Of a stretch of 64,000 nt of DNA, positions 39,597 to 64,000 are shown in pieces. Under the pieces are notes generated by a model. That model saw only the letters and a list, made by a program, of their open reading frames with translations. It ran no database searches and was not told where the DNA came from. Made by a program: the position numbers and the translations under genes. Where the stretch lies: NCBI GenBank assembly GCA_035650575.1, contig DASRHM010000017.1, positions 1,434-65,433 on the forward strand, written 5' to 3'. Each line of letters begins with the position of its first letter. Positions within the stretch are counted from its first letter, which is position 1. Source of the stretch: Dehalococcoidia bacterium. GTDB taxonomy: Bacteria > Chloroflexota > Dehalococcoidia > DSTF01 > JACRBR01.

Positions 39597-39714
39597 CTCC
39601 CCCGGGGCCACGATCCGCGCACGCGCACCCCGGCTACGCGTCCGCATCGGCCCCTAAGCGAATCGCTCATCTTCAGCCGCGAGGACGCCGATAACGAAGC
39701 GGAGGGGCGCTCGC

Positions 39715-41589: not shown

Positions 41590-41616
41590 GGCGCCGCCTG
41601 CCGCGCGCGGGACGCG

Positions 41617-41625
41617 TGCGATACT
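41617..41625 (+). promoter_or_regulatory. Extended -10 (TGcGATACT), 6 nt before the ATG at 41632; probable leaderless transcript
   Basis: gcgTGcGATACTgccggcATG with no Shine-Dalgarno sequence. Confidence 0.45.
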
Positions 41626-41631
41626 GCCGGC

Positions 41632-42975: not shown

Positions 42976-43062
42976 GCCGCGGGGCCGGCGCCCGCGACGG
43001 GCCGGGTGCTGGCACCCATTTGCGGCCGCTAATCTCGAACGCGATTTGGCCGATGCTTCCAC

Positions 43063-46038: not shown

Positions 46039-46041
46039 GCG

Positions 46042-47514: not shown

Positions 47515-47893
47515 CGGTCCTTCCGGCATGGGGCTCGCGCGGGGCAGGGGCCCATGGAACCACTCCGGCGGCGCAGCCACAACTCCCGCGCCCGGAGACG
47601 TCATGCGTCGTGCCGTTGGTGAAGATGGCGCCCGTGTTCGGCCCGACCCCGATCCGGTTGCCGAGGACGATGTCCTCGTCCGCCCCGGGGTTGAAGCTCC
47701 CCCGCTTGTGGTCGCCGAGCACAAGCTGGTTTCCCTCGACGCGCTCGAACGCCCCACGTTGGAAGGCGGACGCCACGGCACGCGCGATGCGCCACGGGCT
47801 CGGGTAGCGGCACGCGGCCGCGGGGCGTACGGGATTCGCCTTACGTGGCTCGCCTCATCGACATCCGCGGGGGCGGGCGCCGATGATCTACGC

Positions 47894-48865
47894 GTGGATC
47901 CTCCGCCCTCAGAGCCACACGGGCCGGGTATCAGCCGCCGCCGCTTCCTGGCGATGATGGGCGCGATGGCGGGCGCGGGCGCCTTCGCGCTCGCGAACAC
48001 GCAGTGCGCGCCGGACGTGCTGCGGCGCGTCGTGCAGGGCACCCGGGCCGTGGCCCCGCCGCAGCACGCCGTGTGGGTGTGGCAGTTCTCGATCGACGGC
48101 CCGGTCGCCGAGATCGCGCCGGCGCTCGCCGCGCGAAACCTCGCCGTCGTCGTGAAGACGCACGACGGCCTCGATTGGATGGCGACGTACGACCCGGTGC
48201 CCGGAGCGGTCGCGGGCGCGCGCGAAGCGGGCATCCTGGCGCGGGTCTTCGAGGACTACGGCGTGCCGTTCCACGCCTGGGCCGTCGTGAAGGGCATCGA
48301 CCCGGTGCGCGAGGCGGCGATGGCCGCGGACGTGCTGGACGCCGGCGCGCATAGCCTCACGCTCGACCTGGAGGCGCACGAGGGGTTCTGGGCAGGGACG
48401 AGCGACGACGCCCTGCGCTTCGGCGAGGAGCTGCGGCGGCGCAACCCGTACGGGCGCGTCGACGTCGCCATCGACCCGCGGCCGTGGCAGATGCTGGCGG
48501 CCCCGCTGGGGGAGTTCGCGACGTTCTGCGACGGCATCCGGCCGCAACTCTACTGGGACATCTACGACACGCCGGACAACGCGAACGGCTACGCGTACCT
48601 GGGCTTCCCGCCAGGGCCGGCGGGCATCACGCCGGAGTTCCTCGTCGACACGACGCGGCGGCTGCTGGCGCCGTTCGACCGCTGGGTCGTGCCGCTGGCG
48701 CTCGGCACCGCGCGCGACGCCGCGTGGGCGCGATTCGCGCACGAAGCGTGGGCGCAGGGGATGCCGGCGCTCAACGTGTGGCGCTACGGCACCGCCGGCC
48801 GCGCGCTGCTCGACTATCTCGGCGCGAACCCGCCGGGCGCGGAGCCCGCCGGCGAACCGGGCTAG
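47894..48865 (+). CDS. Tat-exported TIM-barrel, glycoside-hydrolase-like protein; start uncertain
   Basis: SRRRFL twin-arginine motif plus hydrophobic helix; VWVW, VVKTHDG, LDLE, RPQLYW, NVWRY. Confidence 0.6.
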   Translation: MDPPPSEPHGPGISRRRFLAMMGAMAGAGAFALANTQCAPDVLRRVVQGTRAVAPPQHAVWVWQFSIDGPVAEIAPALAARNLAVVVKTHDGLDWMATYDPVPGAVAGAREAGILARVFEDYGVPFHAWAVVKGIDPVREAAMAADVLDAGAHSLTLDLEAHEGFWAGTSDDALRFGEELRRRNPYGRVDVAIDPRPWQMLAAPLGEFATFCDGIRPQLYWDIYDTPDNANGYAYLGFPPGPAGITPEFLVDTTRRLLAPFDRWVVPLALGTARDAAWARFAHEAWAQGMPALNVWRYGTAGRALLDYLGANPPGAEPAGEPG

Positions 48866-50088
48866 AGCAGGTCGCCGCCGGCGGCGGGCGCCGTCGTCCC
48901 GTGCTCGCGGTACGCCTTGAGCACGTTGCGCCCGACCGTCCAGCGGTGCACCTCGTCCGGGCCGTCGACCAGGCGCTGCGAGCGGATGCTCGTGTACCAG
49001 CGCGCCAGCGGCGTGTCTTCGCTGTAGCCCAGCGCGCCGTGGAGCTGGATCGCCGTATCGACGACCTTGTGCACCATGTTCGCCAGGAACACCTTCGCGA
49101 TCGAGTTCTCCTGCCGCAGGTCCATGCCCTTCTCCGCCTTGTAGGCGATGTGCAGCAGCATCAGGCGCGCCATGTAGAGCTCGCTCGCGCAGTCGGCGAG
49201 CATCCACTGCACGCCCTGTCGCTCGGCGAGGAGCTTGCCGAACGTCGAGCGCTCGAGGACGCGCTTCGCCGCCATATCGAGCGCGCGCTGCGCCATCGCC
49301 ACGTTGTGCATGCCGTGGCGCAGGCGCCCGTACGCCAGGCGGTGCTGCCCCATGTTGAACCCCTGCCCTTCGCCGCCGACGATGTTCTCGTGCGGGACGA
49401 CGAGGTCCTTGATGATGATCTCGGCGTGGCCGCCGCCGAGCATCTCGCCGAGCCGGCTCTCGCCCGCCATCGTGCGGATGTTGCGGACGATCTGGTAGCC
49501 CGGGTTCGGCAACTCGACGAGGAACGTGCTGAACTGCTGGTGCCGCGGCGCATCGGGATTGGTCTTCGCCATGATCATGGCGATGTCGGCGACGCTGGCG
49601 CCACTGCTGAACCACTTCTCGCCGTTGAGGACCCAGTTGTCGCCGTCGCGGACGGCGCGCGTCTGCATGCCGGTGGCGTCGGCGCCCGCGGCCTTCTCGG
49701 TCATCGAGTAACAGATGCGCTTCTCGCCGTTGAGCAACGGCTTGAGGAACTTCTCCTTCTGGTAGTCGGTGCCATGCTGCAGCAGCGTGAGCATCGTCGC
49801 GTCGTCGGGGCCCTGGGTATTCAGCGCGAGCGCGCCGAGGTAGCTCTCGCCGAGCTCCATCTGCACGAGCGCATTCGCGAGCGGGCCGAGGCCCATCCCC
49901 CCGTACTCCTTCGGGATGAACGGGCACCACAGTCCCTGTGCGCGGGCCTTCTGGCGCAGCTCGCCGAGCACCTCCTTGTACGGGCGGTGCTCCAGCTCCT
50001 TCTCCGCCGGGATGCACTCCTCCTGCACGAACCTGCGCACCTTCTCGCGCACGTCCTTCGCGTCCTGCGGGATCTCGAAGTCGATCAT
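48862..50088 (-). CDS. Acyl-CoA dehydrogenase (ACAD10/11-like subfamily)
   Basis: QGPDDAT, YSMTE, LNGEKWFSSG, QHRLAYGRLRHGM, IQLHGALG, LVDGPDEVH. Confidence 0.92.
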   Translation of the reverse strand: MIDFEIPQDAKDVREKVRRFVQEECIPAEKELEHRPYKEVLGELRQKARAQGLWCPFIPKEYGGMGLGPLANALVQMELGESYLGALALNTQGPDDATMLTLLQHGTDYQKEKFLKPLLNGEKRICYSMTEKAAGADATGMQTRAVRDGDNWVLNGEKWFSSGASVADIAMIMAKTNPDAPRHQQFSTFLVELPNPGYQIVRNIRTMAGESRLGEMLGGGHAEIIIKDLVVPHENIVGGEGQGFNMGQHRLAYGRLRHGMHNVAMAQRALDMAAKRVLERSTFGKLLAERQGVQWMLADCASELYMARLMLLHIAYKAEKGMDLRQENSIAKVFLANMVHKVVDTAIQLHGALGYSEDTPLARWYTSIRSQRLVDGPDEVHRWTVGRNVLKAYREHGTTAPAAGGDLL

Positions 50089-50131
50089 CGCGTCACCTCC
50101 CGATGCCTTCCCTCTCGTACCGACGGGGTCC

Positions 50132-51205
50132 TCACGCCGCGGCGATGAACGCCTCGGCGCGCTTGAATAGCCCGAGCGTCGTCGCGTGCAGCATGTCGCC
50201 GACGGCGCGCGGCGCCTTCCCGGCGCAGGCGCGCGCGTGCGTGCCCTCGAGGATGATGCCCAGCTTGAAGCATGCGAGCACGGCGTACCAGCCGACCGCC
50301 GACAGGTCGCGCGTCGAGCGCTCGGCGTAGCGCGCGACTACCTCGTCGGGAGCGGGCAGGCCGCCGGCCGCGGCCAGTCCGGAGCCGACGGCGCCGGCGG
50401 GTTGCGCCGGGTCGGGCCAGGTCGCGAGCAGCCAGCCGAGGTCGAGCAACGGGTCGCCGATCGTGCACATCTCCCAGTCGACGATCGCCGCCAGCCGCGG
50501 GCCGTCGTGCGCGTACATCACGTTGGCGAAGTGGTAGTCGCCGTGCAGGATCCCCGGCGTGCACGACTGCGGCCGGTTGGCCTCGAGCCAGGCGGCGACC
50601 TCGTCCAGCGCCGGAATGGCGGGGCCGGGGTAGCCCTCGAAGCGGCGGTACGACTCCAGCTCGGCGAGCCAGCGCGGCACCTGGCGTTCGAGGAATCCCT
50701 GCGGCTTGCCGAGATCCGCGAGACCGAGCGCCTCGTGGTCGACCGCCGCGAGCGCCGACGCGCCATCGACGATCCGCAGCCCCATCTCGTGGCGGACCGC
50801 GGGGTCGGACGCGTGGAGCGCGGGCAAGGCGACGGTCGCGTTGAAGCCATCGACCGGCTCCATCAGGTAGAAGACGGCGCCGTTCATGACCGTCTCGTCC
50901 GGGCACGCGGCGATGAAGCGCGGGTGCGGCACGCTCGTCTGCGCGAGCGCCCGGAGGACGCGCGCCTCGCGGCGCATCACCTCGTTGCTCGCCGGCCGCA
51001 AGTGCGGCGGCCCGCGACGGAGGACGTACGCGCGACCGCCGCGCGTGAACTTCAGCATCACGTTCTGCGTGCCGCCGGCCAGGGCCTCCACGCCCGCGAC
51101 GGGTCCGCCGGGCAGGCCCTGCGCGTCCATCCACGCGGCGAGCACGTCGAAGTCGACGACGCCGCGTCCGACGCCCGACTGCTGCTGCGCGCTCGCGTCA
51201 GCCAC
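50132..51205 (-). CDS. APH-family phosphotransferase
   Basis: YVLRRGP, REARVL, LHGDYHFAN, DWEM.TIGDPLLDLG. Confidence 0.9.
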   Translation of the reverse strand: MADASAQQQSGVGRGVVDFDVLAAWMDAQGLPGGPVAGVEALAGGTQNVMLKFTRGGRAYVLRRGPPHLRPASNEVMRREARVLRALAQTSVPHPRFIAACPDETVMNGAVFYLMEPVDGFNATVALPALHASDPAVRHEMGLRIVDGASALAAVDHEALGLADLGKPQGFLERQVPRWLAELESYRRFEGYPGPAIPALDEVAAWLEANRPQSCTPGILHGDYHFANVMYAHDGPRLAAIVDWEMCTIGDPLLDLGWLLATWPDPAQPAGAVGSGLAAAGGLPAPDEVVARYAERSTRDLSAVGWYAVLACFKLGIILEGTHARACAGKAPRAVGDMLHATTLGLFKRAEAFIAAA

Positions 51206-51965
51206 CGGCGCTGCCTCCCGATACGACGAGCTGCGACCCGGTGACGAAGCTCGATGCGTCGGTCGCGAAGTAGAGGGCGGCGCCGACGATCTCTTCCGGC
51301 TCGCCGCCGCGCCGGAGCAGGACGCTCTTCTGCGCCGTCCGCCGGAACGCCTGCATGTCCCACGCCTTCGAGATATCGGTCAGGAACGGGCCGGGGACGA
51401 TGCAGTTGACGCGCACCTTCGGGGCGAAGGCGCGGGCGAAGCCGACGGTCATGTTGTTGACGCCGGCCTTCGCCGCGCCGTACGGGATGACGTTCGCGCC
51501 CGGGCTGAGCGACGCCGTGCTCGAGACGAAGATGATCGACCCGCCGGCGCCCGCCGCCATGCGCGTGCCGACGATCGCCGTGAGCCGGAACGGCCCCTTG
51601 AGGTTGACGTCGAGCACCTTGTCGTACAGCGCCTCACTGACGTTGCTCACGTGGTCGTAGACCGGCGAGAGGCCGGCGTTGTTCACCAGCACGTCGACGC
51701 GCCCGAACTCGGCGTAGGCGCGCTCGGCCAGGCGCTCGACCTGATCCCACTCGCCGACGTGGCACGCGACGGCGAGCGCGCGCCGGCCGGTGGTCGACCG
51801 CACCTCCGCGGCAAGCGCCTCGCACGCGTCGAGCTTGCGGCTGGCGATGATCACGTCGGCGCCCGCGCGCGCGAAGGCCCGCACCATCTCGCGGCCCAGG
51901 CCGCGGCTGCCGCCGGTAACGAGCGCGATGCGCCCGCTGAGGTCGAACATCTGCCCGTCCGCCAT
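51198..51965 (-). CDS. SDR oxidoreductase
   Basis: VTGGSRGLG, VNNAG, YGAAKAG, VNCIVPG. Confidence 0.92.
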   Translation of the reverse strand: MADGQMFDLSGRIALVTGGSRGLGREMVRAFARAGADVIIASRKLDACEALAAEVRSTTGRRALAVACHVGEWDQVERLAERAYAEFGRVDVLVNNAGLSPVYDHVSNVSEALYDKVLDVNLKGPFRLTAIVGTRMAAGAGGSIIFVSSTASLSPGANVIPYGAAKAGVNNMTVGFARAFAPKVRVNCIVPGPFLTDISKAWDMQAFRRTAQKSVLLRRGGEPEEIVGAALYFATDASSFVTGSQLVVSGGSAGG

Positions 51966-52088
51966 CGCGCCTCCGCCCCAGGATGGATCGCCATCGTATC
52001 CCGTGCGGGGCGGAAGCACGATGCGCGCGGCCGAAGGCCCCGCGACCGTCGCGGCCGCGCCCCGGCGGCGTCCGCGCCGGTCGGACGC

Positions 52089-52814
52089 CTACGGACGCGT
52101 GCCGAGGCCTCGGATCGCGTCGATGGCGACGTCGATCAACTGGGGAGGGATGCGCCATGCGCCGAAGCTCCAGCCCCGGAAGCGCCGGAACGCACCGACG
52201 TTGATGCGGTACGAGTTGCGCCGGCCGACCCGGCCGCGCGTGATGATCCGCTCCGCCGCAAGCTGGCGGAGCACATCGACGACGGCGCGCTCGGTGATGC
52301 CCGTCGCCTTCGCCAGCTCGCGCAGCGTCCGCGAGTCGTTCTCGGCGATCGCCAGCAGGACGAGCATGTGACTCGTGAAGAACCCCCAGGTCCCCTCGCG
52401 GGCCTCGAGTTCGTGCGCGCGGGCGCGCCGAGGCGCCCGCGCCGCGGCGCCGCCGCCCGGCGCCGTCGATGCGAGCTCGAAGAGCGCCCGCACGACCGCC
52501 TCGACGAACGGACGCGGCGTCAGCGGGCCCGTCGTGCCGCCGCGACGCACGGTCGAAAGGCGCGCAAAGTCGACCGAGTAGGCGTTGCGGCGCCCACGCC
52601 GGTGCCTCGTGATGATCCCGTCCGCATCGAGGTCGCGCAGCATGGCGAGCGTCGCCCGCTCCGTTATGTCGATGCCATCCGCGATCTCGCGCACGGTCGA
52701 GTCGGGATGGGCGATGACATAGATGAGCACGACCGCCTGGTTCGTCAGGAAGCGCCACGTTGCCGGCGCCTGAGCGCGTGGCGGCTGGTCGCGGACGTGT
52801 TGCGGGATCGTCAT
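52089..52814 (-). CDS. Tandem winged-helix (MarR-like) DNA-binding protein with two HTH repeats
   Basis: WRFLTNQ..VL...TVREIA..IDITERA...GRRNAY and WGFFTSH..VL...TLRELA..GITERA...GRRNSY. Confidence 0.82.
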   Translation of the reverse strand: MTIPQHVRDQPPRAQAPATWRFLTNQAVVLIYVIAHPDSTVREIADGIDITERATLAMLRDLDADGIITRHRRGRRNAYSVDFARLSTVRRGGTTGPLTPRPFVEAVVRALFELASTAPGGGAAARAPRRARAHELEAREGTWGFFTSHMLVLLAIAENDSRTLRELAKATGITERAVVDVLRQLAAERIITRGRVGRRNSYRINVGAFRRFRGWSFGAWRIPPQLIDVAIDAIRGLGTRP

Positions 52815-52981
52815 GTTGACATATCCATAGAAGCAGCGATCGTGCTCCCGCGTTCACCTGTCGTGCTTCGGCGTATCTTCGCGCAGGTCCTCCCCGCCTG
52901 GCAATACCCGCGGCGCTCATCCCGGCGCAATCGGCGACGGCACGTTCCCGCCCCGGAACGCTCCCGCGAGCCTCGCGGGTA

Positions 52982-53026
52982 TTGACAGGGCGAAGCTCAG
53001 CAGTAGAATACAGGCAATAATTATCA
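52982..53026 (+). promoter_or_regulatory. Near-consensus sigma70 promoter with a downstream Fur-like palindrome
   Basis: TTGACA (52982-52987), 16-nt spacer, TAGAAT (53004-53009); AGGCAATAATTATCA (53012-53026). Confidence 0.75.
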
Positions 53027-53267
53027 GGTAATGGCACTCACGCTTCGTCATTCAGGTGAATGGATTCACGAGTGAAGACGGGGATGCTCGCGGGAGCGGT
53101 TCTGCAGGGGACTCGGGTGAGGACGGCTCCACTAGTTCCGGCGGGGAAACCAGGCTAGGAGCAGTCCTCGGGGCGGCGTGGCCAGCCGCCCTCCCTCCAC
53201 CAGATCGGACCCTTGGGAAGAGCGCGACGCAGCGGAGCCGGCACAGGAGGGCCGGCTCCTCGTTTCG
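53016..53267 (+). ncRNA. Candidate structured small RNA or long leader, family unassigned
   Basis: Lies between a strong promoter and a terminator-like hairpin; several stems, including GAGGAC/GTCCTC closing a GAAA-capped helix; non-coding-like codon use. Confidence 0.45.
53234..53267 (+). terminator. Terminator-like hairpin
   Basis: GGAGCCGGC-ACAGGAGG-GCCGGCTCC followed by TCGTTTCG. Confidence 0.5.
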
Positions 53268-53456
53268 TCGTGCGCAGGCGCGGTCGTGCGGCGCACGCCG
53301 GCGCGAGCGGGCGGATACCGACGCTGCGCGCCGGATGCGTGCGCAGCCGAACACCGTCCCTCGGCGGTCGCCGCAGCGCCGGGGGACGCGAGCTTGACCG
53401 CGCCCCGCGCAGCGCGCATCGTTCGACCGTCGTCTCGCGAGAGCAGCGGAGGATGC

Positions 53457-54455
53457 ATGGTACGGCTGACTGCCGCCGACGAAGGCTTCTACCACCAGAT
53501 CCCGGAGCCGCTCCCGAACGTCGCGACGCAGCACGACCACTGGCGCGAGAGCTACTTCTTCGTGCTGCATCCGCGGTCCGGGCCCGGGGACGTGGTCATC
53601 CTGACGATGGCGCACTATCCGGCGCGCGAGATTATGGACTCGCTGCAGCTCGGACGCATCGACGGGCAGTTCGTCTTCGCGCGGCACGAGCGGCCCTACG
53701 ACGGCGACCCGCACACGACGGCGGTCGGGCCGGTGCGCATCGATATCGTCGAGCCGTACCGGGAGGTGCGCCTGCACGTCGATGACGGCGCGCCCGTGTC
53801 GCTCGACCTGACGTTCACCGCGCGCACCCGGGCGTACGGGTTGCGCCGGGGCACCATGAAGCGCGGGAGCGAGATCATCTGGGACCAGAGCCACATGATC
53901 CAGTCCGGCACATACCGCGGGACCTACACGAAGGACGGCGTGACGCGCACGGTGGATGACTGGTGGGGCCAGCGCGACCACTCCTGGGGGATCCGCGACC
54001 ACGCCCGCTGCCCGCTCTGGATGTGGTTCCAGATCCAGTTCGACGACGGCATGCTCGGCGTCTGGCACTGGGAGTACGCGAACGGCGCCCGCGTGTACAC
54101 CGACGGCTGCTTCGCCCGGGCGGACGGCGGCGAGCCGATCCCGGTCATCGATTTCCGGCACGACGAGATGCACTGGACGGACGCCGATGGGAAGCCCGCG
54201 GACTACGGGAAGTCCGGCGAGCGGACGGTCGGGCTCGCCGGGCGCTGCGTGTTCACCCTCGAAGGCGGCAAGAAGGTCGTCATCGATGCCGAAGGGACGC
54301 GCTGCGCGCCGTATGGGGCGCTCGGCGGCGGACTGCACCAGATGACGGTGCGAGCGGACGACGGCCGGACCGGGACGGCGATCTTCGAGGTGACGGGCGC
54401 GCACCACCACCAGTACTTCCCGGTCCCGCGCGGGGAGCGCCTGCCGCCGGGCTGA
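53457..54455 (+). CDS. Hypothetical protein, tocopherol-cyclase/CrtC-like beta-barrel
   Basis: GGAGG RBS; WRESYFF, GQRDHSWGIRD and W.WFQ..FDDG motifs. Confidence 0.6.
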   Translation: MVRLTAADEGFYHQIPEPLPNVATQHDHWRESYFFVLHPRSGPGDVVILTMAHYPAREIMDSLQLGRIDGQFVFARHERPYDGDPHTTAVGPVRIDIVEPYREVRLHVDDGAPVSLDLTFTARTRAYGLRRGTMKRGSEIIWDQSHMIQSGTYRGTYTKDGVTRTVDDWWGQRDHSWGIRDHARCPLWMWFQIQFDDGMLGVWHWEYANGARVYTDGCFARADGGEPIPVIDFRHDEMHWTDADGKPADYGKSGERTVGLAGRCVFTLEGGKKVVIDAEGTRCAPYGALGGGLHQMTVRADDGRTGTAIFEVTGAHHHQYFPVPRGERLPPG

Positions 54456-54657
54456 AGCGAGCGCGGGGCGCACCTCCGCGCTGCGTTCGCGGCGACGGCG
54501 TCCCGGCCCGGCCGGTCCCGGCGCTGCGGATCGACGGCGGCGGGTCGAAGCTGATCCTGTCAGGGGCGCGAGAACTTTACATGGCCCGCGCGACGCGCGT
54601 CACCAAACGCGCGCGGACGGCGTTTGATCCGATAGCCCATCTCGCGAGGAGGCGCCC

Positions 54658-56565
54658 GTGCTCCGTCGAGCGACCGTGATCGTCGCGGCCTTCACCGCCA
54701 TCGCCCTCGCGCCGCTGGTGCTGCGGCTCGGCACGTCGGGCGCAAGCACGCCGCAGCCGCCGCTGCGCGAGGCCGCGGCGCCGCCGCCTGCGGGCGGTGG
54801 CGCCATCGCGCCCGGGCGCCTGGTCGTGCGCTTCAAGCCGGGCGTTTCGGCGGACGCGATGCGCTTCCAAAATGCGGCGCTCGGGGCGCGCGAGGCCGGG
54901 AGCCATCCGCGCTCCGGGCTGCACGTGCTGCAGCTCTCCAACGCCGCCGCGGCGGATGCGGCGCTCGCCGCCTACCGGCGCAGCCCGATCGTCGAGTCCG
55001 CGGGGTACAGCTACGTCGTGCGCGCGTTCGACGCGCCGAACGACACGAACTACGCGTACCAGTGGGACATGCACGACACGACGGGCGGCGTCTGGGCCGA
55101 ATCGGCGTGGGGCCTGGCGACGAACCACGGGCAGGGCGTCGTCGTCGCCGTCATCGACTCCGGCGTGGCCTACGAGGACTTCACGGGCCCGGGGCCGCTC
55201 GGCAACTCGACGGTGTACCGCCGTTCGCCGGACCTTGCCGGCAAGACGTTCGTGGCGCCGTATGACTTCGTGAACAACGACGCGCACCCGAACGACGACA
55301 ACGGGCACGGCACGCACGTCACGGGCACGATCGCGGAGGACACGGATAACAACTTCGGCGTGGCGGGCGTCGCCTACGCCGCGACGATCATGCCACTGAA
55401 GGTGATCCAGCTCGATGGAACCGGCCAGGACGCGGACCTCGTGGAGGCGCTGTACTACGCCGTGGACCACGGGGCGCGGGTGATCAACATGAGCCTGGGC
55501 TTCAGCGGCACCGGCGCGCCGGACGCGAACGGCGTCCCCTGCACGGAGGTCGTCGGCTTGAACGACGCGCTCGAGTACGCGTACAGCCACGGGGTGGTGA
55601 TCGCCGCGGCGGCGGGCAACGAGGGCGCGAACGTGGTGAGCTGCCCCGCCGCGTACCCGACGGTGATCGCCGTCGGCGCGACACGGTTCGACGGCACGCG
55701 CCCAGCGTACTCGAACACGGGCAGCGCGCTCGACGTCGCGGCCGCCGGCGGCGACCCGAACGTCGACCAGAACCACGACGGCTTCTCCGACGGCGTCGTC
55801 TCCGAGACCTACTGCTACGACTACATCAGCCTGCTCTTCCTCGGGAGCTACGACGCGTTCTGCGACATCTTCATGTCCGGCACGTCGATGGCGACGCCGC
55901 ACGTCGCCGGCCTCGCGGCGCTGCTGCTCGGGGAAGATGCGACACTCACCCCGGACCAGGTGCGCGCGCTGATCCGGGCCACGGCCCGCGACCGCGGCGC
56001 GGCCGGATGGGACCCGGCGTACGGCTGGGGCGAGATCGACGCGCGCGCCGCCGTCGCGGCGCTGGCCGGCGCTTCGCCGACGGCGACGCCGCCGGCCGCG
56101 ACCAGCACGCCAGCCGACACGGCGACGAGCACGCCGACCGCCACGAACACCGCCGTCCCGACGGCGACGAGCACGCCGAACGCCACGAACACGGCCGTCC
56201 CGACGGCCACGCGCACGCCGGCGCCCGTGCCCGCGCTCCACGTCGGCGACCTGGATGGTTCGGCACGGATCCGGCGCTCCGGGTGGAACGCGCAGGTCGT
56301 CGTCACCGTGCACGATGCGTCCCACCGCACGCGCTCCGGCGTCGTGGTGAGCGCGGCCTGGGGCGGCGCGGCCGCGGGCCCGGCCACGTGCACGACCAAC
56401 GGCAAGGGCCAGTGCACGCTCACATCGGCGCTGGTGCCGCTGTCGAGCACGTCGGTGTCACTGACGGTCAGCGGGCTCAGCGCACCCGGCTCCGTCTACG
56501 ACGCCGCGGCGAACCACGACCCGGACGGCAGCAGCACCGGCACGGCCATCGTCGTCACGAGGTAG
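54658..56565 (+). CDS. Secreted S8 (subtilisin-family) serine protease with Thr/Pro linker and C-terminal beta domain
   Basis: VAVIDSG (Asp), NGHGTHVTG (His), GTSMATPH (Ser), AAAGN; signal peptide; GAGGAGG RBS. Confidence 0.93.
   Translation: MLRRATVIVAAFTAIALAPLVLRLGTSGASTPQPPLREAAAPPPAGGGAIAPGRLVVRFKPGVSADAMRFQNAALGAREAGSHPRSGLHVLQLSNAAAADAALAAYRRSPIVESAGYSYVVRAFDAPNDTNYAYQWDMHDTTGGVWAESAWGLATNHGQGVVVAVIDSGVAYEDFTGPGPLGNSTVYRRSPDLAGKTFVAPYDFVNNDAHPNDDNGHGTHVTGTIAEDTDNNFGVAGVAYAATIMPLKVIQLDGTGQDADLVEALYYAVDHGARVINMSLGFSGTGAPDANGVPCTEVVGLNDALEYAYSHGVVIAAAAGNEGANVVSCPAAYPTVIAVGATRFDGTRPAYSNTGSALDVAAAGGDPNVDQNHDGFSDGVVSETYCYDYISLLFLGSYDAFCDIFMSGTSMATPHVAGLAALLLGEDATLTPDQVRALIRATARDRGAAGWDPAYGWGEIDARAAVAALAGASPTATPPAATSTPADTATSTPTATNTAVPTATSTPNATNTAVPTATRTPAPVPALHVGDLDGSARIRRSGWNAQVVVTVHDASHRTRSGVVVSAAWGGAAAGPATCTTNGKGQCTLTSALVPLSSTSVSLTVSGLSAPGSVYDAAANHDPDGSSTGTAIVVTR
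56119..56202 (+). repeat. 2 x 42-nt in-frame duplication encoding the TATSTP.ATNTAVP linker
   Basis: 56119-56160 and 56161-56202 are nearly identical. Confidence 0.8.
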
Positions 56566-56576
56566 CGGCTCCGGCG

Positions 56577-58442
56577 TCAGGCGACGTCCGCCACGGCGCC
56601 CGCGAACTGCGCGTTGTACAGGGCCGCGTAGGCGCCCCCGCGCGCGAGCAGCTCGGCATGGTTCCCCTGCTCGACGATGCGGCCCGCGTCCATGACCAGG
56701 ATCGTGTCGGCGTCGCGGATGGTCGAGAGCCGGTGCGCGATGACGAAGCTCGTGCGCTGCGCGCGGAGCGCCGCCATCGCCCGCTGGATCAGGACTTCCG
56801 TCCGCGTGTCGACGGAGCTCGTCGCCTCGTCGAGGATGAGGATCGGGCGGTCGGCGAGGAAAGCGCGCGCGATCGTGATGAGCTGGCGCTCGCCGGCGCT
56901 GATCGAGCTGCCCTCGTCGTCGATCCGCGTGTCATAGCCATCGGGCAACGAGTGCACGAACCGGTCCACGTAGGTCGCGCGCGCGGCTTCGATGATCTGC
57001 TCCTCCGTCGCGTCGAGGTTGCCGTAGGCGATGTTCTCGCGGATCGTCCCGCCGAACATCCACGTGTCCTGCAGCACCATGCCGATCTGGGACCGCAGCT
57101 CGGCGCGCGACAGGCGCGAGATGTCGCGTCCGTCGATGGTGATCGCGCCCTGGTCGACCTCGTAGAACCGCATGATGAGGTTCACGAGCGTGGTCTTGCC
57201 CGCGCCCGTCGGGCCGACGATCGCCACCGTCCGGCCCGGCTCGACCACCAGCGAGAGATCGCTGATCAGCGGCCGCTGCGGGTCGTAGGAGAACGACACG
57301 CGCGAGAACTCGACGCGCCCGCGCGTCTTGCCCGGGGCGGCGGACGCCGGCAGGTCGGGCGACTCCTCCCCGGCGTCGAGCAGCTCGAACACGCGCTCCG
57401 CGGACGCGATGCCCGACTGGAACGTGTTGACCATCGACGCGATCCAGGAGAGCGGCTGCGTGAAGCTGCGCGAGTACTGGAGGAACGCCTGGATGTCGCC
57501 GATCGTCATGGCGCCGTTCGAGACGCGGATGCCGCCCAGCACGGCGATCGCCACGAAGTTGAGATTGCCGACGAGCATCGTCGCCGGCTGGATGACGCCG
57601 GAGATGAACTGCGCGCCGAAGCTCGCTTCGTACAGTTCGTCGTTCGTCTCGCGGAAGGCCTGCTCGATGTCCCGCTGCCGGCCGAAGGCCTTGACGATCG
57701 CGTGGCCGGTGAACGTCTCTTCGACCTGCGCGTTCAGCGTCCCCGTGTGGCGCCACTGCGCGACGAACCGCGTGCGCGACCGCCGGGCGATCGCGCTCAT
57801 GAGCAACGTCGAGAGCGGGATGGTGACGAGCGCGACGAGCGCGAGCATCCACGAGATCCAGAGCATCATGACGACGGTGCCGACGAGCGTCAGCGTCTGC
57901 GTGAGCATCTGCGACAGCGTCTGCTGCAGGCTCTGCGCGATGTTGTCGATGTCGTTGGTAACGCGGCTCAGCAAGTCGCCGCGCTGCGCCCGGTCGACGT
58001 AGCGCAGCGGCAGCCGGTTGAGCTTCGCCTCCACGTCCGCGCGCAGCCGGTACATCGTCCGTTGCACGGCGCCGGCCAGGATGTAGGAGGTCGAGTACTG
58101 GAGCACCCAGGCGCCGGCGAGGAGCGCGAGGGCGAAGCCGAGGATGCGGCCGAGGTGCCCGAAGTCCATCGGCTGGCGCGTGAAGGCGGCGCGGACGACC
58201 ACGTCGGTGGCGCTGCCGAGCACCTTGGGCAGCAGCACGCTCATGCAGACGGCGACGACCGCCATGACGACGGCGGCGATCACGATCCAGCGCTCGCGCT
58301 CGAACCCGCGGAACAGCCGGCGCGTGGTGCTGGCGAAGTCCCGCGGCTTCTCCGCCGGCATGCCGAAGGAACGCATGCGCATGCCGCCCCGCTGCTCGTC
58401 CGGCGGCTTCACCGGATCCGGCTGCCGGCTCTCCGTGCTCAT
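56577..58442 (-). CDS. Heterodimeric ABC exporter, subunit 2 (TMD + consensus NBD)
   Basis: GPTGAGKT, ISAGERQ, ILILDEATSSVD, IAHRLST. Confidence 0.93.
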   Translation of the reverse strand: MSTESRQPDPVKPPDEQRGGMRMRSFGMPAEKPRDFASTTRRLFRGFERERWIVIAAVVMAVVAVCMSVLLPKVLGSATDVVVRAAFTRQPMDFGHLGRILGFALALLAGAWVLQYSTSYILAGAVQRTMYRLRADVEAKLNRLPLRYVDRAQRGDLLSRVTNDIDNIAQSLQQTLSQMLTQTLTLVGTVVMMLWISWMLALVALVTIPLSTLLMSAIARRSRTRFVAQWRHTGTLNAQVEETFTGHAIVKAFGRQRDIEQAFRETNDELYEASFGAQFISGVIQPATMLVGNLNFVAIAVLGGIRVSNGAMTIGDIQAFLQYSRSFTQPLSWIASMVNTFQSGIASAERVFELLDAGEESPDLPASAAPGKTRGRVEFSRVSFSYDPQRPLISDLSLVVEPGRTVAIVGPTGAGKTTLVNLIMRFYEVDQGAITIDGRDISRLSRAELRSQIGMVLQDTWMFGGTIRENIAYGNLDATEEQIIEAARATYVDRFVHSLPDGYDTRIDDEGSSISAGERQLITIARAFLADRPILILDEATSSVDTRTEVLIQRAMAALRAQRTSFVIAHRLSTIRDADTILVMDAGRIVEQGNHAELLARGGAYAALYNAQFAGAVADVA

Positions 58443-60166
58443 GCCGGCACCCCCTCGCCGATCTGCGACTCGACGATCTCCGCATAGGTCGGGCAGGTCT
58501 GGAGCAGCTCGTCATGCGTCCCCAACCCCACGGCCTCGCCGTCCTCCAGCACGAGGATCTGCTCCGCCGACATGATCGTCGAGAAGCGCTGCGCGACGAT
58601 GAGGATCGTCGCGTCCCGCGCGTACGGCACGAGCGCCGCGCGCAACCGCGCATCGGTGGCCAGGTCAAGCGCGGAGAACGAGTCGTCGAAGAGGTAGATC
58701 TCCGGCCGGCGCACCAGGGCGCGCGCGATCGCCAGGCGCTGGCGCTGGCCGCCGGAGACGTTGACGCCACCCTGTGCGATCTCGGCGTCCAGGCCGCCCA
58801 TCGCCCGCACGAAGTCCGCCGCCTGCGCGACCTCGAGCGCCGCCCAGAGCTCATCCTCGCTCGCATCGGGCTTGCCGAAGCGCAGGTTGCTGGCGACGGT
58901 ACCGCCGAACAGGTACGGCTTCTGGGGCACGATGCCGATGCGCTGCCACAGGATCTGGGGATCGAGATCGCGCAGGTCGACGCCGTCGAACAGGACCGCG
59001 CCGGAGGTGACATCGAACAGGCGCGCGGCGACGTTGATCAGGCTCGTCTTGCCCGAACCGGTGCTGCCGATGATCGCCGTCGTCTGCCCCGGGAGCGAGG
59101 TGAACGAGATGCCCTCCAGCACGGCGTGCTGGGCGCCCGGATAGCGGAATCCGACATCGCGGAATTCGAGCCGGCCGCGCTCACGCACCGCTGTCACCGG
59201 CGCCGGCGGCGGCGTCACCGAGCTCGACGTCGCGAGCACTTCCTGGATGCGATCGGCGGAGACGGCGGCGCGCGGGGCCATCATCGTCACCATCGTCGCC
59301 ATCATCACCGCGGACATGATCAGCGACAGGTACGTGATGAAGGCGACGAGCGAACCGACCGACATGCTGCCGCTGTCGACCCGGTGCCCGCCGAACCAGA
59401 TGACGGCGATGCTCGAGGCATTGACCACGAACAGCATCGTGGGGAACATCAGCGCCATCAGCCGGCCCGCGGTCAGCGACGTGTCGGTCAGGTCCTGGTT
59501 CACCGCGTGGAAGCGCCGCGCCTCCACGGGCTCGCGCACGAAGGCGCGCACCACGCGCATGCCGGCGATCTGCTCGCGCAGCACGTTATTGATGCCATCG
59601 AGGCGGTCCTGCATGAGCCGGAACTGCGGCACCATGCGCGACACGATGGCGCCGAGGACGATCATCAGCAGCGGCAGGCTGACGGCGAGCAGCCACGAGA
59701 GGCCCAGGTCCTGCCGCATCGCCATGAAGACCCCGAACACGACGGTCATCGGCGCGGCGACGACCATGGTGCAGGTCATCAGCACGAGCAGCTGCACCTG
59801 CGTGACGTCGTTCGTGATGCGCGTGATCAGCGAGGGCGCGCCGAAGAGGTTCACCTCGCGCGCGGAGAACGCCACCACGCGGCCGAAGAGCGCCGCCCGC
59901 ACGTCGCGCCCGAAGCCCATGGCCGCGCGGGCGCCGCAGTAGACGGCGCCCACCGAGAAGATGGCCTGCACCGCCGTCACGGCGAGCATCACCCCGCCCG
60001 TACGCCAGATATAGCCGGTGTCGCCGCGCAGGATGCCCTTGTCGATGACGTCGGCGTTGAGCGACGGCAGCAGCAGGGAGGCCGTCGCCTGCACGGCCTG
60101 GAGGACGAGCACGGCAGCCAGCCAGTATCGATAGGCGCGGAGATGGGTGCGGAGAAGCTGGATCAT
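58439..60166 (-). CDS. Heterodimeric ABC exporter, subunit 1 (TMD + degenerate NBD)
   Basis: GSTGSGKT, VSGGQRQR, IYLFDDSFSALD (E to D), VAQR (H to Q): the TM287/288-type pattern. Confidence 0.93.
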   Translation of the reverse strand: MIQLLRTHLRAYRYWLAAVLVLQAVQATASLLLPSLNADVIDKGILRGDTGYIWRTGGVMLAVTAVQAIFSVGAVYCGARAAMGFGRDVRAALFGRVVAFSAREVNLFGAPSLITRITNDVTQVQLLVLMTCTMVVAAPMTVVFGVFMAMRQDLGLSWLLAVSLPLLMIVLGAIVSRMVPQFRLMQDRLDGINNVLREQIAGMRVVRAFVREPVEARRFHAVNQDLTDTSLTAGRLMALMFPTMLFVVNASSIAVIWFGGHRVDSGSMSVGSLVAFITYLSLIMSAVMMATMVTMMAPRAAVSADRIQEVLATSSSVTPPPAPVTAVRERGRLEFRDVGFRYPGAQHAVLEGISFTSLPGQTTAIIGSTGSGKTSLINVAARLFDVTSGAVLFDGVDLRDLDPQILWQRIGIVPQKPYLFGGTVASNLRFGKPDASEDELWAALEVAQAADFVRAMGGLDAEIAQGGVNVSGGQRQRLAIARALVRRPEIYLFDDSFSALDLATDARLRAALVPYARDATILIVAQRFSTIMSAEQILVLEDGEAVGLGTHDELLQTCPTYAEIVESQIGEGVPA

Positions 60167-60408
60167 CTCGCTTGCTTACGGCTTCGGTTGACGGCCGAAT
60201 GGAACCGAGCGTAGCAGAGCCGGCCCGCTGCCTCGACTTCCAGGTTGGCGCTCCCCAATACTCTGCTCACCGACGCCCGGCCGCCCGCGCGCCACGGCCG
60301 CGCGGGCCCGGTACATTATCGGCGCCCGCCGATGCCCGCGCGACGAGCGCGGCCGGCGGCCGTCCGGCCGCCGGGCATCGCGCGGCCGCCGCGCGGAGGA
60401 GGCGCAGC

Positions 60409-60981
60409 ATGTCAGAGATGTTCGTGCGGTCGCTGCGCAACCGCGTGCGCGCCATGAATTCGCTCTGGGAGCGCGCCATCAGCGATATGACGCTCGACCA
60501 GGTGAACCATCACGAGCGGCCGCGCGTGCTCCCGATCGCCTTCAGCCTGAGCCATTACCTGCGGGCGCAGGACCAGGCGGTGAGCATGCTGCTCCTGCGC
60601 GAGCGCCCCGTCTGGGACGCCGGCGGGTGGGCGCAGAAGGTCGGCGTCTCAGTCGACCGGCTGGGCCGCGAGGAATCCGTGGACGAGATGGAGCACATCC
60701 GCTTCTCGGACCTGGCGGCCTGGCGGGCGTACCAGGCCGCCGTGATCGCGCGCACGGATGCGGTGGTCGGCGAGCTCTCGGAAGAGGCGCTCGCGGAGGT
60801 GGTGCTGCCGCAACTGCCGCCGAACATGCAGCAGACCTTCTGTGCGATGGCGATCGGGTCCGGCGCGCCCCTGCGCAAGCTCGATGTCATCGAGTGCTTC
60901 GTGTACCAGCACGGCCTGCGCCACATGGGCGAGGTCGAGCACGGCCGCGCCCTCGTCGGCCTCGGCGGCATGACGAGCTAG
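60409..60981 (+). CDS. DinB/YfiT-like protein
   Basis: PIAFSLSHY and HGLRH.GE metal-binding His pattern; GGAGGAGG RBS. Confidence 0.7.
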   Translation: MSEMFVRSLRNRVRAMNSLWERAISDMTLDQVNHHERPRVLPIAFSLSHYLRAQDQAVSMLLLRERPVWDAGGWAQKVGVSVDRLGREESVDEMEHIRFSDLAAWRAYQAAVIARTDAVVGELSEEALAEVVLPQLPPNMQQTFCAMAIGSGAPLRKLDVIECFVYQHGLRHMGEVEHGRALVGLGGMTS

Positions 60982-61260
60982 CACGGCCGCGACGACCGCG
61001 GATGCTGCCTCCGGATCGCGGAGCGTGGCGATGCGCAGTCCCCGCCGTAGTCCGTCGGCGGCTCGTGAACCGCTGCCCGCCGGCCCGCCCATCGGTCCCG
61101 ACAGCGTCGCGGGGACTCACCTGCGGGCGCGGCTGTCCCTCGACCCGGCGCCCGGGCGTTGCGTCGCGCGATGCCATCGGCCGATCCCGTCCCGGTGCGC
61201 CCGCGATATGATCCGCGACGGCGCGCACCGGGGCGCGCGGCTCGGGAGATCGGGGAGAGC

Positions 61261-62262
61261 ATGGCGCGTCGTCCGGTAAGCCTCGCACTGGTCGGCGCGG
61301 GCGCGATCGGGCAGGTGCACGCGCGCACGGTCGCGCAGCACCTGCCGGGCGCGCGCCTCGCCGCGGTCGTGGACCCGGACGCCGGGCGCGCGCAGCAGGC
61401 GGCGGCGGTCGCCGACGGCGCGGCGGCCATGGAGAGCGCCGGGCCGGCGCTGCGGGAGCCCGCCATCGATGCCGTCGTGATCGCGGCGCCGACGCACGTC
61501 CACGCTGACCTGATCATCGAAGCGGCGCGCAACGGCAAGCACGTCTTTTGCGAGAAGCCGCTCGCCCTCACGCTCGGGGACGCGCGGCGCGCGGTCGATG
61601 CCGTGACCGCCGCGGGCGTGCACCTCCAGATCGGCTTCCAGCGCCGCTTCGATGCGGGCTACCGGCGGGCGAAGGATGCGATCGCGCGCGGCGAGCTCGG
61701 GCGGGTCGAGCTGCTCGCCTCGACCACCCGGGACCCGGCGCCGCCGCGGCCGGGATACCTGGAGTGCTGCGGCGGCGTCTTCCTCGACACCTCGATCCAC
61801 GACTTCGACAGCATCCGCTTCCTGGCGGACGACGAGGTGAGCGAGGTGTACGCCACGGCGTCGACGCTCGTGACGCCGGAGCGCGGCGGGGCGTTCGACC
61901 TCGATACGGTCGCCGTCGTGTTGCGGCTGCGGTCCGGCGCGCTCGCGACCGTCACCAACTCGCTGCGCACCGGCTACGGGTATGAGGCGGGCGCGGAGGT
62001 GTTCGGCTCGCGGGGCAAGATCACGGTCCATGGCGCCGAAGACGGCGTCCGGCACTACCGCGAGGGCCACGTGGCGGTCGCGCATCCGCAGACGTGGCGC
62101 GAGCGGTTCGGCGAGGCCTATCGCGCCGAGCTGGCGGATTTCGTGCGATGCGTCGCCGAGGGGCGGCCTCCGTCGGTCGACGGCGAGGACGGCCTGCGCG
62201 CGCTGGAGGTCGCGCTGGCGGCGACGCAGTCGCAGCGCGAAGGCCGTCCCGTGCGCCTCTAG
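61261..62262 (+). CDS. Gfo/Idh/MocA oxidoreductase, inositol 2-dehydrogenase-like
   Basis: VGAGAIG, FCEKPLA, QIGFQRRFD, GGVFLDTSIHDFD, GYGYE. Confidence 0.88.
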   Translation: MARRPVSLALVGAGAIGQVHARTVAQHLPGARLAAVVDPDAGRAQQAAAVADGAAAMESAGPALREPAIDAVVIAAPTHVHADLIIEAARNGKHVFCEKPLALTLGDARRAVDAVTAAGVHLQIGFQRRFDAGYRRAKDAIARGELGRVELLASTTRDPAPPRPGYLECCGGVFLDTSIHDFDSIRFLADDEVSEVYATASTLVTPERGGAFDLDTVAVVLRLRSGALATVTNSLRTGYGYEAGAEVFGSRGKITVHGAEDGVRHYREGHVAVAHPQTWRERFGEAYRAELADFVRCVAEGRPPSVDGEDGLRALEVALAATQSQREGRPVRL

Positions 62263-63125
62263 CGCGCGGCACCACCCGCCGATGCCGCGCTTCCACCGTC
62301 CAGCACGAATCCCGCCGCGCTCAGGACATCGGCCGCGCGCTTGTACGCCGTGCGGGCGACCTCATGCGGGTCGCGCTCCCAGTATTCCGGGCGGAAGATC
62401 TCGACGGAGGCCACGCCGTCGTAGCCACCCGCCCGCAGCGCCGAGAGGATCGCCCCGACCGGGATTGGCCCCTCGCCGGGATACCGACGATGCGCATCCG
62501 TGAGGGCATGCGGCGGGACGTCATCGCATCCGTTCAGGTGCACGACGAGCAGCCGATCCATCGGCAGCGCGGCGATGTCACGCAGGTCGCTGCCGCCGGC
62601 GTGAAAGTGAAACGTGTCGAGCACCATGCCGACGTTGGGGCGGTCGGCCTCGTTGACGATTTCGATGGCGAGGTCGAGCGTCGGGACGACGCAACCGGGC
62701 TTGCCGAGGAACTCGAACGCCAGCGCGACGTCGCCCGCGATGTCCGCCATCTCGCGCAGCACGCCGACGCTCTCGCGCACGACCTCGCGTCGCGCCGGAG
62801 CGGCGTCGCGGCGGCCGGGGACGACGACGATGGCCGGCGCCGCAATGGCGCGTGCGATCTCGACGAGCCGGCCGAGGTCTGCGAGCAGCGCGCGCCGTCC
62901 GGCGGCATCGCGGAAGGTGATGTCTTCGATCGAATTGATGGACCAGGAGGCGACGCCGGCCTCGCGCAGTCGCGCGGCGAGCGCGGCGACGCTCTCGCGC
63001 TCGAGGTATGGATGGAGCTTGCCCGCCCATACCTCGAGCGCGCTGAACCCGCACGCGGCCGCCAGGGCAACGTCCTGCTCGAGGGGCGAGCGCATGATCG
63101 TCGCGCCGTTCAGCGCCAGACGCAT
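62259..63125 (-). CDS. Sugar phosphate isomerase/epimerase (IolI/IolH-like TIM barrel)
   Basis: LAFEFLG, LDTFHF, VHLNG, YPGEG, SVEIF. Confidence 0.87.
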   Translation of the reverse strand: MRLALNGATIMRSPLEQDVALAAACGFSALEVWAGKLHPYLERESVAALAARLREAGVASWSINSIEDITFRDAAGRRALLADLGRLVEIARAIAAPAIVVVPGRRDAAPARREVVRESVGVLREMADIAGDVALAFEFLGKPGCVVPTLDLAIEIVNEADRPNVGMVLDTFHFHAGGSDLRDIAALPMDRLLVVHLNGCDDVPPHALTDAHRRYPGEGPIPVGAILSALRAGGYDGVASVEIFRPEYWERDPHEVARTAYKRAADVLSAAGFVLDGGSAASAGGAAR

Positions 63126-63344
63126 GCGGCGATTGTCGCTCGCGCGTGGGGCCGGGGCCAGCGGCCGCGCCCGCGCGTCCCGTGCTGGGCGCCGCAGCGC
63201 GGGCGCCGCGCGAACACACCGCATCCCGCCCGGCGCAGGTGGCTCCGCGCACCGGTCTCATCCACAATGGACGACGGATCCGTGCGCGGGACACGATCGT
63301 AGGATCCGGCGTCGTGCCGCCAGCAGCAGGAGGAGTGCGCGTCC

Positions 63345-64000
63345 ATGATCACCGAGTCGCCGCGGGTCTCCTTCGCGGACTTCGAGCGGGCCACCGGCTG
63401 GGCGATCAAGCCGGAGGGCGCCTGCCGGGACGGCCGCTGTATCCCCCTCCCCGCCGGCACGCGCGACCCCGTGGACCTGCGCGTGGTCGCCGGCCACTTG
63501 CGGATGCCGCTGGTGCACGACGAGCCGTCCGGGCTGTGGGCGCTGGGCCCGGAGTCGGGAGGCCGCGCGCTGACGAGCGCCGTCGCGCCGGACCTGGAGT
63601 TGCCCGACGCGGACGGCGCGCCCTTCCGGCTGTCATCGCTGCGCGGGACGAAGGTGCTCCTCGTCGCCTGGGCGTCGTGGTGAGGGTGCCGCCTGGACCT
63701 GCCCGTGTGGCAGGCACTGCGCACCGAGCTTCGCCCGCGCGGCCTCGAGATCGTCACCGTCGGCCTCGACGTCAACGCTGAGGCCGCGCGCCGCGTCATC
63801 GCGAGTCACCCGCACGATCATCCGTCGCTCATCGACGCGGCCCACGTGCTCGATGAGCTGCTGGGGATCGTCAACGTCCCCAGCGGCGTCTGGATCGACG
63901 AGCGCGGCATGATCGTGCGGCCGCCGGAGCCGGCGTTTCCGGCGCGGCCGTCCTACGCGGACCCGTCGACGCTCGCGAAGCTTCCCCCGCGGCTCGCGGC
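63345..64000 (+). CDS. TlpA/ResA-like redoxin selenoprotein (WASW-Sec-GC); 3' partial, TGA at 63681-63683 read as Sec
   Basis: APDLELPD.DG..F.LSSLRG.KVLLVAWASW*GCRLDLPVWQALRTEL..RGLEIVTVGLDV...IVNVPSGVWIDERGMIV; the thioredoxin fold continues in frame past the TGA. Confidence 0.85.
63686..63717 (+). other. Bacterial SECIS-like hairpin
   Basis: CCTGCC (63698-63703), loop CGTGT, GGCAGG (63709-63714), with possible GTG/CAC lower pairing; loop G is 22 nt after the UGA. Confidence 0.7.

Follow-up and report, generated by a model that had tools for sequence, protein, structure and literature searches.

The stretch of DNA considered here, 64,000 nucleotides of contig DASRHM010000017.1 from a Dehalococcoidia bacterium (hereafter the window), raises the question of whether a TGA triplet at 63681-63683 on its forward strand ends a short gene or encodes selenocysteine (Sec) in a longer one. 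The open reading frame (ORF) concerned, 63345..63683 (+), starts with ATG, encodes 112 amino acids and has this TGA as its stop. A preliminary description, made from the letters of the window alone, held that the same frame continues to the window edge in codons rich in G+C at their third position (GC3), and translation bears this out: the frame is open to base 64000 with zero stops, reading GCRLDLPVWQALRTELRPRGLEIVTVGLDV...NVPSGVWIDERG..., or, across the triplet, ...LLVAWASW*GCRLDLPVWQALRTELRPRGLEIVTVGLDV...NVPSGVWIDERGMIVRPPEP..., and GC3 is 0.97 before TGA 63681 and 0.88 after it. A scan of all stops in the 64-kb window left TGA 63681 as the sole TGA with a coding signal on both sides, apart from one at 45296 (-), which lies antisense to the gene at 43033-46038 and is an antisense artefact. 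We conclude that TGA 63681 is very probably the Sec codon of a thioredoxin-fold redox protein. It is, in our judgement, highly probable that the locus holds one gene and not two ORFs, and that its product is a cytoplasmic selenoprotein of 356 residues, a member of the 'WAxxUGC / UGC-containing TlpA-like' family, decoded through SelB and a selenocysteine insertion sequence (SECIS).

Continuity of the gene could be followed outside the window. An exact-sequence look-up of the 112-aa product returned three contigs (L001, L002 and L003) of independent origin (ENA ERZ27279688, JGI 3300005529 and Logan SRR5581483), and positions 63345-64000 (656 bases, TGA included) are base-for-base identical in all three of these metagenome assemblies, so that a sequencing error at the TGA is ruled out. 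The window holds codons 1-218 of a frame that extends beyond its edge on these contigs to 356 codons and a terminal TGA of its own. The extension, taken from the identical contig L001:10001-11071, comprises 415 further bases (to would-be position 64415) and encodes the helical C-terminal domain, of about 150 residues, with a single TPR-like motif and the motifs NWTYKRQAW and GAENYY. In all three assemblies the gene callers split the frame into ORFs of 112 and 236 aa, and the gene is thus a clear example of how selenoproteomes come to be undercounted in metagenome-assembled genomes (MAGs) of soil Chloroflexota and Actinomycetota; since every public assembly found to carry the gene, three in number, has these split calls, there is value here for annotation.

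The completed gene belongs to a known family. When the stop is read as Cys, the part of the protein encoded in the window (218 residues) scores 328.2 bits against NCBIfam NF041054.1, 'ResA-like WAxxUGC motif-containing protein' ('WAxxUGC_long', an equivalog), for which the curated cutoff is 300 bits; the full gene completed from L001 scores 542.1 bits over profile positions 1-353 of 354, and the 112-aa fragment alone 160 bits. The preliminary description had pointed to a family of this name and had remarked that pipelines often split such genes, and it was right on both counts. Besides the score, the protein has the W-A-x-x-U-G-C motif (U or Cys), here WASW-U-G-C at 63669-63689, and the 'long', three-part architecture of about 354 aa with N- and C-terminal extensions. 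The family, like the set of relatives described below, mixes Sec and Cys forms (Patulibacter minatonensis has a Cys form), and we find no substantial difference between it and the copy described here, which is merely unannotated as one gene in public assemblies.

The family also appears in the literature under other names, and a literature search for the string 'WAxxUGC' gave no match. The selenoproteome survey of the Global Ocean Sampling data, published in 2008, lists a 'Prx-like (UGC-containing)' family with domain pfam00578 and motif UGC, comprising 46 Sec sequences and 855 Cys homologues and commoner in non-marine samples (PMC2398784). The same family is also listed in a 2026 review, and the published example sequence is MDE0950781.1. 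The window protein and the published family share the thioredoxin fold (pfam00578 / cd02966), the UGC redox motif and the occurrence of Sec and Cys forms; as to habitat, the published family is commoner in non-marine samples, and the carriers of the window gene are three metagenome assemblies, with relatives in MAGs. From the shared motif and domain we infer that 'Prx-like (UGC-containing)' and the NCBIfam 'long' family are the same. The selenoprotein family is already curated in NCBIfam and published, and our finding is correct and ordinary: nothing here changes existing knowledge of this kind of system, and its interest lies in annotation hygiene and in an unusually clean comparison of SECIS elements, not in novelty. 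The family itself is widespread, has a curated model and an unusual U-x-C centre, and is without a solved structure.

What is seen in the TGA column depends on how the relatives are sampled. A protein-database search returned 2043 relatives, of which the best 120 are full-length (mostly 344-360 aa) and have, without exception, Cys at the motif position, in 116 cases as WASWCGC. This uniformity among the top 120 is a gene-calling artefact, because TGA forms are stored as fragments; a search of protein databases therefore yields Cys-type homologues only and hides the TGA forms, which make up nearly all of the closest relatives. Against that bias, we scanned genomic DNA from one genome per GTDB species, with the Sec/Cys column masked as X in a 14-sequence alignment and with two patterns, NVP[NS][GS].W.. 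and P.NWTYKR, that both lie far from the motif and exclude that column. Among the 80 best genomic loci, which are 57-77% identical to the window protein, the motif codon is TGA in 79 and TGC in one. The 80 loci come from Chloroflexota (Chloroflexia, Dehalococcoidia, Thermomicrobiales and Ktedonobacterales), Actinomycetota (Acidimicrobiia and Solirubrobacterales) and Dormibacterota, and further from Deltaproteobacteria, Hyphomicrobiales, Burkholderiales, Terriglobales and Binataceae; the relative most similar to the window selenoprotein, at 77%, belongs to a Chloroflexia MAG. In P. minatonensis, whose protein carries the family name at NCBI, the motif codon really is TGC. A residue other than Cys or Sec at this position, such as the Trp that the preliminary description had proposed to look for, was found neither among the best 120 proteins nor among the 80 best loci. 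The locus thus shows an in-frame UGA that aligns with Cys in homologues and has conserved coding sequence on both sides, which is what is expected of a selenoprotein gene.

Some of the related loci carry more than one copy. On contig L037 (Ilumatobacteraceae MAG JAODBQ010000583.1) three family copies are clustered, with Sec codons near 3337 (+), 4427 (+) and ~886 (-), and on L038 two copies stand in tandem, with Sec codons near 3337 and 4412 (+). The extra copies (two on L037, one on L038) have an in-frame TGA in the motif WAPY-U-GC, followed by DLP[GV]WQ; the first copy on each contig is placed by its match in the scan, its codon not having been read out. A Cys-type locus, L109 (metagenome contig Ga0182022_1317938), has apparently lost one base after the GAC that follows the CGC motif (GACTGCCGTTGTGGCAG); it appears frameshifted, by pseudogene formation or by an assembly error.

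Bacterial decoding of UGA as Sec by means of SelB and a hairpin is established. The candidate SECIS in the window lies at 63698-63714 (+), with the 5' arm CCUGCC at 63698-63703, the loop CGUGU at 63704-63708 and the 3' arm GGCAGG at 63709-63714; it starts 14 nt after the TGA and is encoded within the D-L-P-V-W-Q-A codons. This is the 6-bp GC stem with a G/U-containing loop that had been called SECIS-like in the preliminary description, and the label stands up well. Bacterial SECIS elements (bSECIS) are expected to have a loop of 3-9 nt, an upper stem of 4-16 bp, a G in the first two loop positions, a distance of 16-37 nt between UGA and loop and a minimum free energy (MFE) of -7.5 kcal/mol or lower (PMC13188914). 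The hairpin agrees with every one of these values, having a 5-nt loop, 6 bp, a G at loop position 2 followed by U, a distance of 20 nt and an MFE of -9.3 kcal/mol. Like the bacterial SECIS of the Escherichia coli fdhF/fdnG type (Zhang & Gladyshev model, per PMC13188914), it is a stem-loop within the coding sequence that follows the UGA closely, with an apical loop of small size, G then U near the 5' side of that loop, and comparable spacing and energy. It differs from the E. coli elements in its unrelated sequence, from bacterial SECIS elements generally in that neither a bulged U nor a lower stem turned out to be conserved here (RNAalifold gives the 6-bp upper stem only), and also in being unusually uniform across phyla. 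A longer lower stem seen in the MFE structure of the window sequence was rejected, as it is not conserved. No family match to SECIS was returned by Rfam at gathering thresholds for the window (one tRNA was), and a covariance model of the hairpin found no second match there, the next best scoring 12 bits.

The evidence that the hairpin stands above chance comes from comparison of homologous sequences and not from the single sequence. If the U of the UGA is numbered 1, the pairs are 18-34, 19-33, 20-32, 21-31, 22-30 and 23-29, and the loop is 24-28. Among the 80 TGA forms (the window and 79 loci), RNAalifold finds the 6-bp hairpin as the only consensus structure, and 99.1% of cells are paired; shifting the 3' partner by 1-3 columns lowers the figure to 30-72%. 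Pair 18-34 is C-G in 54 forms, U-A in 17 and U-G in 4, with 3 mismatches, so that C-G and U-A replace one another in a compensatory way; pair 20-32 is U-A in 63 and U-G in 14, the latter through a Gln-to-Arg change that keeps the pairing. The four other stem pairs never vary, and therefore give no evidence of covariation. The sequence CUGCC-CGKGU-GGCAG is present in 76/80 TGA forms.

The contrast with Cys forms is, on these alignments, stronger evidence for a SECIS than the covariation. We compared the TGA forms with 25 Cys orthologues, WASWCGCR-type genes from metagenomes that are at least 46% identical to the window protein (BLASTP-based filter). Sec forms have an unbroken 5-bp stem core in 79/80 cases, Cys orthologues in 4/25 (Fisher p = 4e-17), and the mean MFE of the hairpin is -8.7 kcal/mol in the former and -3.2 kcal/mol in the latter. 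For the Leu in the stem, 79/79 Sec forms use CUG, a codon that accounts for 42% of Leu codons in the rest of those segments; for the Pro, 76/80 use CCC, compared with 34% elsewhere. In Sec forms, and only there, synonymous positions of the stem and loop are frozen, and third positions outside the element vary freely. The encoded peptide is near-invariant in Sec forms (DLP[VG]W[QR]) and varies in Cys forms (DLSGWR, DLPLWQ, DGPIWS, DNPLWA and others). These comparisons indicate that the hairpin is under selection only where the UGA is present, and the Sec/Cys contrast amounts to a clean natural experiment on the function of SECIS elements and on the direction of Sec-to-Cys replacement.

A number of observations weigh against reading the UGA as Sec, or at least temper it. 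In the window sequence alone the hairpin is not significant: against dinucleotide shuffles its fold has z = +0.58 for 60 nt and z = -0.02 for 121 nt, and we rejected single-sequence folding as evidence, its MFE being no better than that of shuffles and the method unusable in DNA of 71% G+C. With four of the six stem pairs invariant, direct covariation rests on one pair, 18-34, whose U-A cases come mostly from one clade (Solirubrobacterales), though Thermomicrobiales and Ktedonobacteraceae loci add two or more other lineages; moreover, the hairpin sequence is partly dictated by the conserved peptide. Two Cys orthologues retain a perfect hairpin, L004:3337-3386 (P. minatonensis, TGC) and L120:1498-1547 (-, TGT), both with 63 bits in the covariance model, where other Cys forms score 21-46 bits; L120 is otherwise near-identical to Sec forms of Solirubrobacterales, and the two seem to have exchanged Sec for Cys recently, with the SECIS left behind as a fossil. 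The genes selA, selB and selD and a tRNA-Sec are absent from the 64-kb window, in which ARAGORN and Rfam found tRNA-Glu only and an NCBIfam scan of 40 ORFs found no SelA, SelB or SelD, and no Sec machinery, tRNA-Sec included, was seen beside 60 homologous loci. The literature searched shows no family member with experimentally demonstrated selenium, and what is said below of the catalytic cycle and of the role of the Cys27/Cys32 pair is deduction only.

The alternative that survives best, which we nevertheless consider improbable, is that the UGA is read without SelB, whether through a suppressor or near-cognate tRNA or through an altered code, so that Trp, Gly or Cys is inserted, and that the hairpin merely slows the ribosome. 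Some bacterial lineages do reassign UGA, and the fact that the Sec machinery of the host is not seen in the window would fit such a reading. Against it, TGA is the ordinary stop of 18/40 other genes in the window and of the selenoprotein gene itself, which excludes a global reassignment; the position is occupied in homologues by Cys or TGA alone, Trp and Gly being absent, which is the mark of Sec/Cys exchange; in loop and spacing the hairpin has the features of a bSECIS; and the family is curated and published as one of selenoproteins. More doubtful still, to the point of being very improbable, is the view that there are two separate genes, a 112-aa protein ending at the TGA and a 236-aa protein starting 21 nt downstream, as the automatic calls on L001, L002 and L003 have it. 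Such a split would interrupt the thioredoxin fold after beta-1 and before the active-site helix and leave a first piece that scores far under the family cutoff, whereas the Cys-type orthologues are single chains of 344-360 aa and 80 loci maintain one reading frame through the TGA. A nonsense pseudogene or sequencing error, that is, a Cys-type redoxin recently inactivated by mutation or with its TGC/TGT miscalled, has a probability close to nil, for although gene callers put a stop here in all three assemblies and Cys-type homologues are abundant, the TGA is identical in three independent assemblies, its presence at exactly this codon in 79/80 of the closest relatives from several phyla effectively refutes the idea, the 243 codons downstream are fully conserved with the profile matched to 353/354, no frameshift or relaxed constraint is seen there (GC3 stays at 0.88), and the hairpin is under selection only alongside the TGA.

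Given that a single Sec-containing protein is by far the preferred reading, its sequence may be compared with those of known redoxins. In a phmmer search of PDB sequences, the segment WASW[U]G-CR is matched to WASWCGPCR in a DsbE and to WATWCVPCR in TlpA, and profile matches link the protein to structures of ResA, TlpA and DsbE. The alignment to DsbE and TlpA needs a one-residue deletion before the second Cys, and the motif is accordingly U-G-C and not C-x-x-C; the TGA aligns with the first Cys of CxxC, and therefore stands at the nucleophilic Cys of a U-x-C motif. The preliminary description had put the TGA at the redox-Cys position of TlpA/ResA-type redoxins in just such a motif, behind an N-terminal CRDGRC, and both features are there. 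On the DNA, a Shine-Dalgarno-like AGGAGG, read from the sequence, is found at 63328..63333 (+), 11 nt 5' of the ATG, and the N-terminus MI...L aligns with the first residue both in the homologues and in the NF041054 profile. Codons 1-112 (63345..63680, +) encode an N-terminal domain of about 75 aa, followed by the opening strands of the thioredoxin fold up to WASW, and include Cys27 (63423-25) and Cys32 (63438-40) of CRDGRC, both invariant in the alignments. The in-frame UGA at 63681..63683 (+), read as Sec113, occupies the column of the nucleophilic first Cys of the thioredoxin-fold motif, and the TGC at 63687..63689 (+) encodes Cys115, the resolving Cys of U-G-C, which is invariant in all alignments and aligns with the second Cys of CxxC. 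Codons 114-218 (63684..64000, +) encode the remainder of the thioredoxin fold, up to the point where the gene leaves the window.

For the structure we relied on an AlphaFold model of a Cys homologue, P0001, which is 65% identical to the window protein and stands in for it. The model has a mean predicted local distance difference test score (pLDDT) of 93.7 and a predicted template modelling score (pTM) of 0.90, and the motif opens a helix at 114-132. It shows a thioredoxin fold with the TlpA-like insertion (cd02966), and Foldseek matched the full-length model to PDB entries through the thioredoxin core only, ResA (2f9s) with a TM score of 0.76 and a root-mean-square deviation of 1.8 A over 117 columns. 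The N-terminal 75 residues, modelled alone with AlphaFold (pLDDT 89), form a small alpha/beta domain in which Cys27 and Cys32 lie on adjacent strands, and for which no structural neighbour was found in the PDB (best E = 0.7); nor did the structure comparison find a solved full-length counterpart with the added terminal domains. No hydrophobic segment that could serve as signal or anchor was found, the maximum 19-residue Kyte-Doolittle mean being 1.2, at the active-site strand, and the N-terminus is modelled as a folded, soluble domain. A cytoplasmic location is accordingly predicted, in contrast to ResA and TlpA.

The protein thus has the thioredoxin-fold core and the WxxW-C...C-R active-site context in common with ResA, TlpA and CcmG (DsbE), on which account it probably works as a thiol-disulfide oxidoreductase. 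It differs from them in that its U-x-C is one residue shorter than CxxC, in that it has no membrane anchor or signal sequence, and in that it adds an N-terminal domain with Cys-x4-Cys and a C-terminal helical, TPR-like domain. We rejected the possibility that it is an orthologue of ResA or TlpA, given scores far under the cutoffs of the respective models (47.9 bits against 170 for ResA PRK03147, and 42.1 bits against 230 for TlpA NF047696). Its Pfam matches are to PF00578 (AhpC-TSA; 44.9 bits) and PF08534 (Redoxin), and we likewise rejected a peroxiredoxin: the peroxidatic motif of peroxiredoxins (AhpC/TSA), PxxxTxxC(U) (PMC13188914), is absent here, where V-A-W-A-S-W precedes U113, with no Thr at -3 and no Pro at -7, and the PF00578 match reflects the shared fold and not a peroxiredoxin active site.

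By analogy with established bacterial Sec decoding, the hairpin that starts 14 nt after UGA 63681, with its loop CGUGU 20 nt after it, would be bound by SelB in complex with GTP and Sec-tRNASec, and this complex would deliver Sec to the UGA in competition with release factor 2. The product would have three parts: the N-terminal domain of about 75 aa with the invariant Cys27-x4-Cys32; a thioredoxin fold of the ResA/TlpA type, in which CxxC is replaced by U113-G-C115 at the N-terminus of helix alpha-1; and the helical C-terminal domain with its one TPR-like motif. The chemistry would most likely be thiol/selenol-disulfide exchange, in which Sec113 would attack the oxidised form of a substrate and the mixed intermediate would be resolved by Cys115 into an intramolecular selenenylsulfide, which a cellular reductant would then reduce again; the pair Cys27/Cys32 may be a second relay or a structural disulfide. 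One could go further and suppose a self-contained cytoplasmic redox relay, in which Cys27-x4-Cys32 exchanges electrons with a strained U-x-C and the TPR-like domain selects the substrate; and, as a separate matter, the near-identical SECIS in at least six phyla could reflect either repeated horizontal transfer of the gene together with its SECIS or a hairpin universally accepted by diverse SelB proteins. We offer this tentatively, and as a whole it is rather unlikely.

With regard to gene neighbourhood, clustering of the ORFs around 81 loci revealed no conserved partner gene, no partner being common to more than 15 loci. The 16-locus cluster was discarded as a partner, as it consists of off-frame ORFs of the selenoprotein gene itself, and so was a 15-locus cluster of generic short-chain dehydrogenases/reductases at varying positions. 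Directly 3' of the selenoprotein gene of the closest relative is an OsmC-like (peroxiredoxin-family) gene, L007:4045-4650 (+), whose homologous cluster occurs at 3/81 loci. Beyond the window edge, L001:11058-15235 carries two paralogous genes of about 520 aa with a phosphoenolpyruvate (PEP)-utilising mobile domain (rifampicin-phosphotransferase-like) and a separate gene for a PPDK_N ATP-binding domain, which together look like a split phosphotransferase system.

Within the window, three consecutive genes at 39658-46038 (+) encode the catalytic subunit of a CelA-like cellulose synthase, a GlcD-like FAD oxidase and a GGDEF protein of 1000 aa whose C-terminus resembles a phosphodiesterase of cyclic di-GMP (c-di-GMP); they may constitute a polysaccharide locus controlled by c-di-GMP. 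At 53136-56565 (+), a gene for an Rv3169-family protein adjoins one for a mycosin-like (type VII secretion-associated) subtilase; these annotations are of actinobacterial type, though the methionyl-tRNA synthetase of the window is nearest (76-81% identity) to those of Dehalococcoidia/Chloroflexota MAGs. Together with the Chloroflexia MAG that has the best relative of the selenoprotein, this synthetase marks the host as an uncultured Chloroflexota bacterium of high G+C content. Finally, GC skew is about +0.05 to +0.16 over positions 1-46000 regardless of gene strand, and about zero over 46000-64000.

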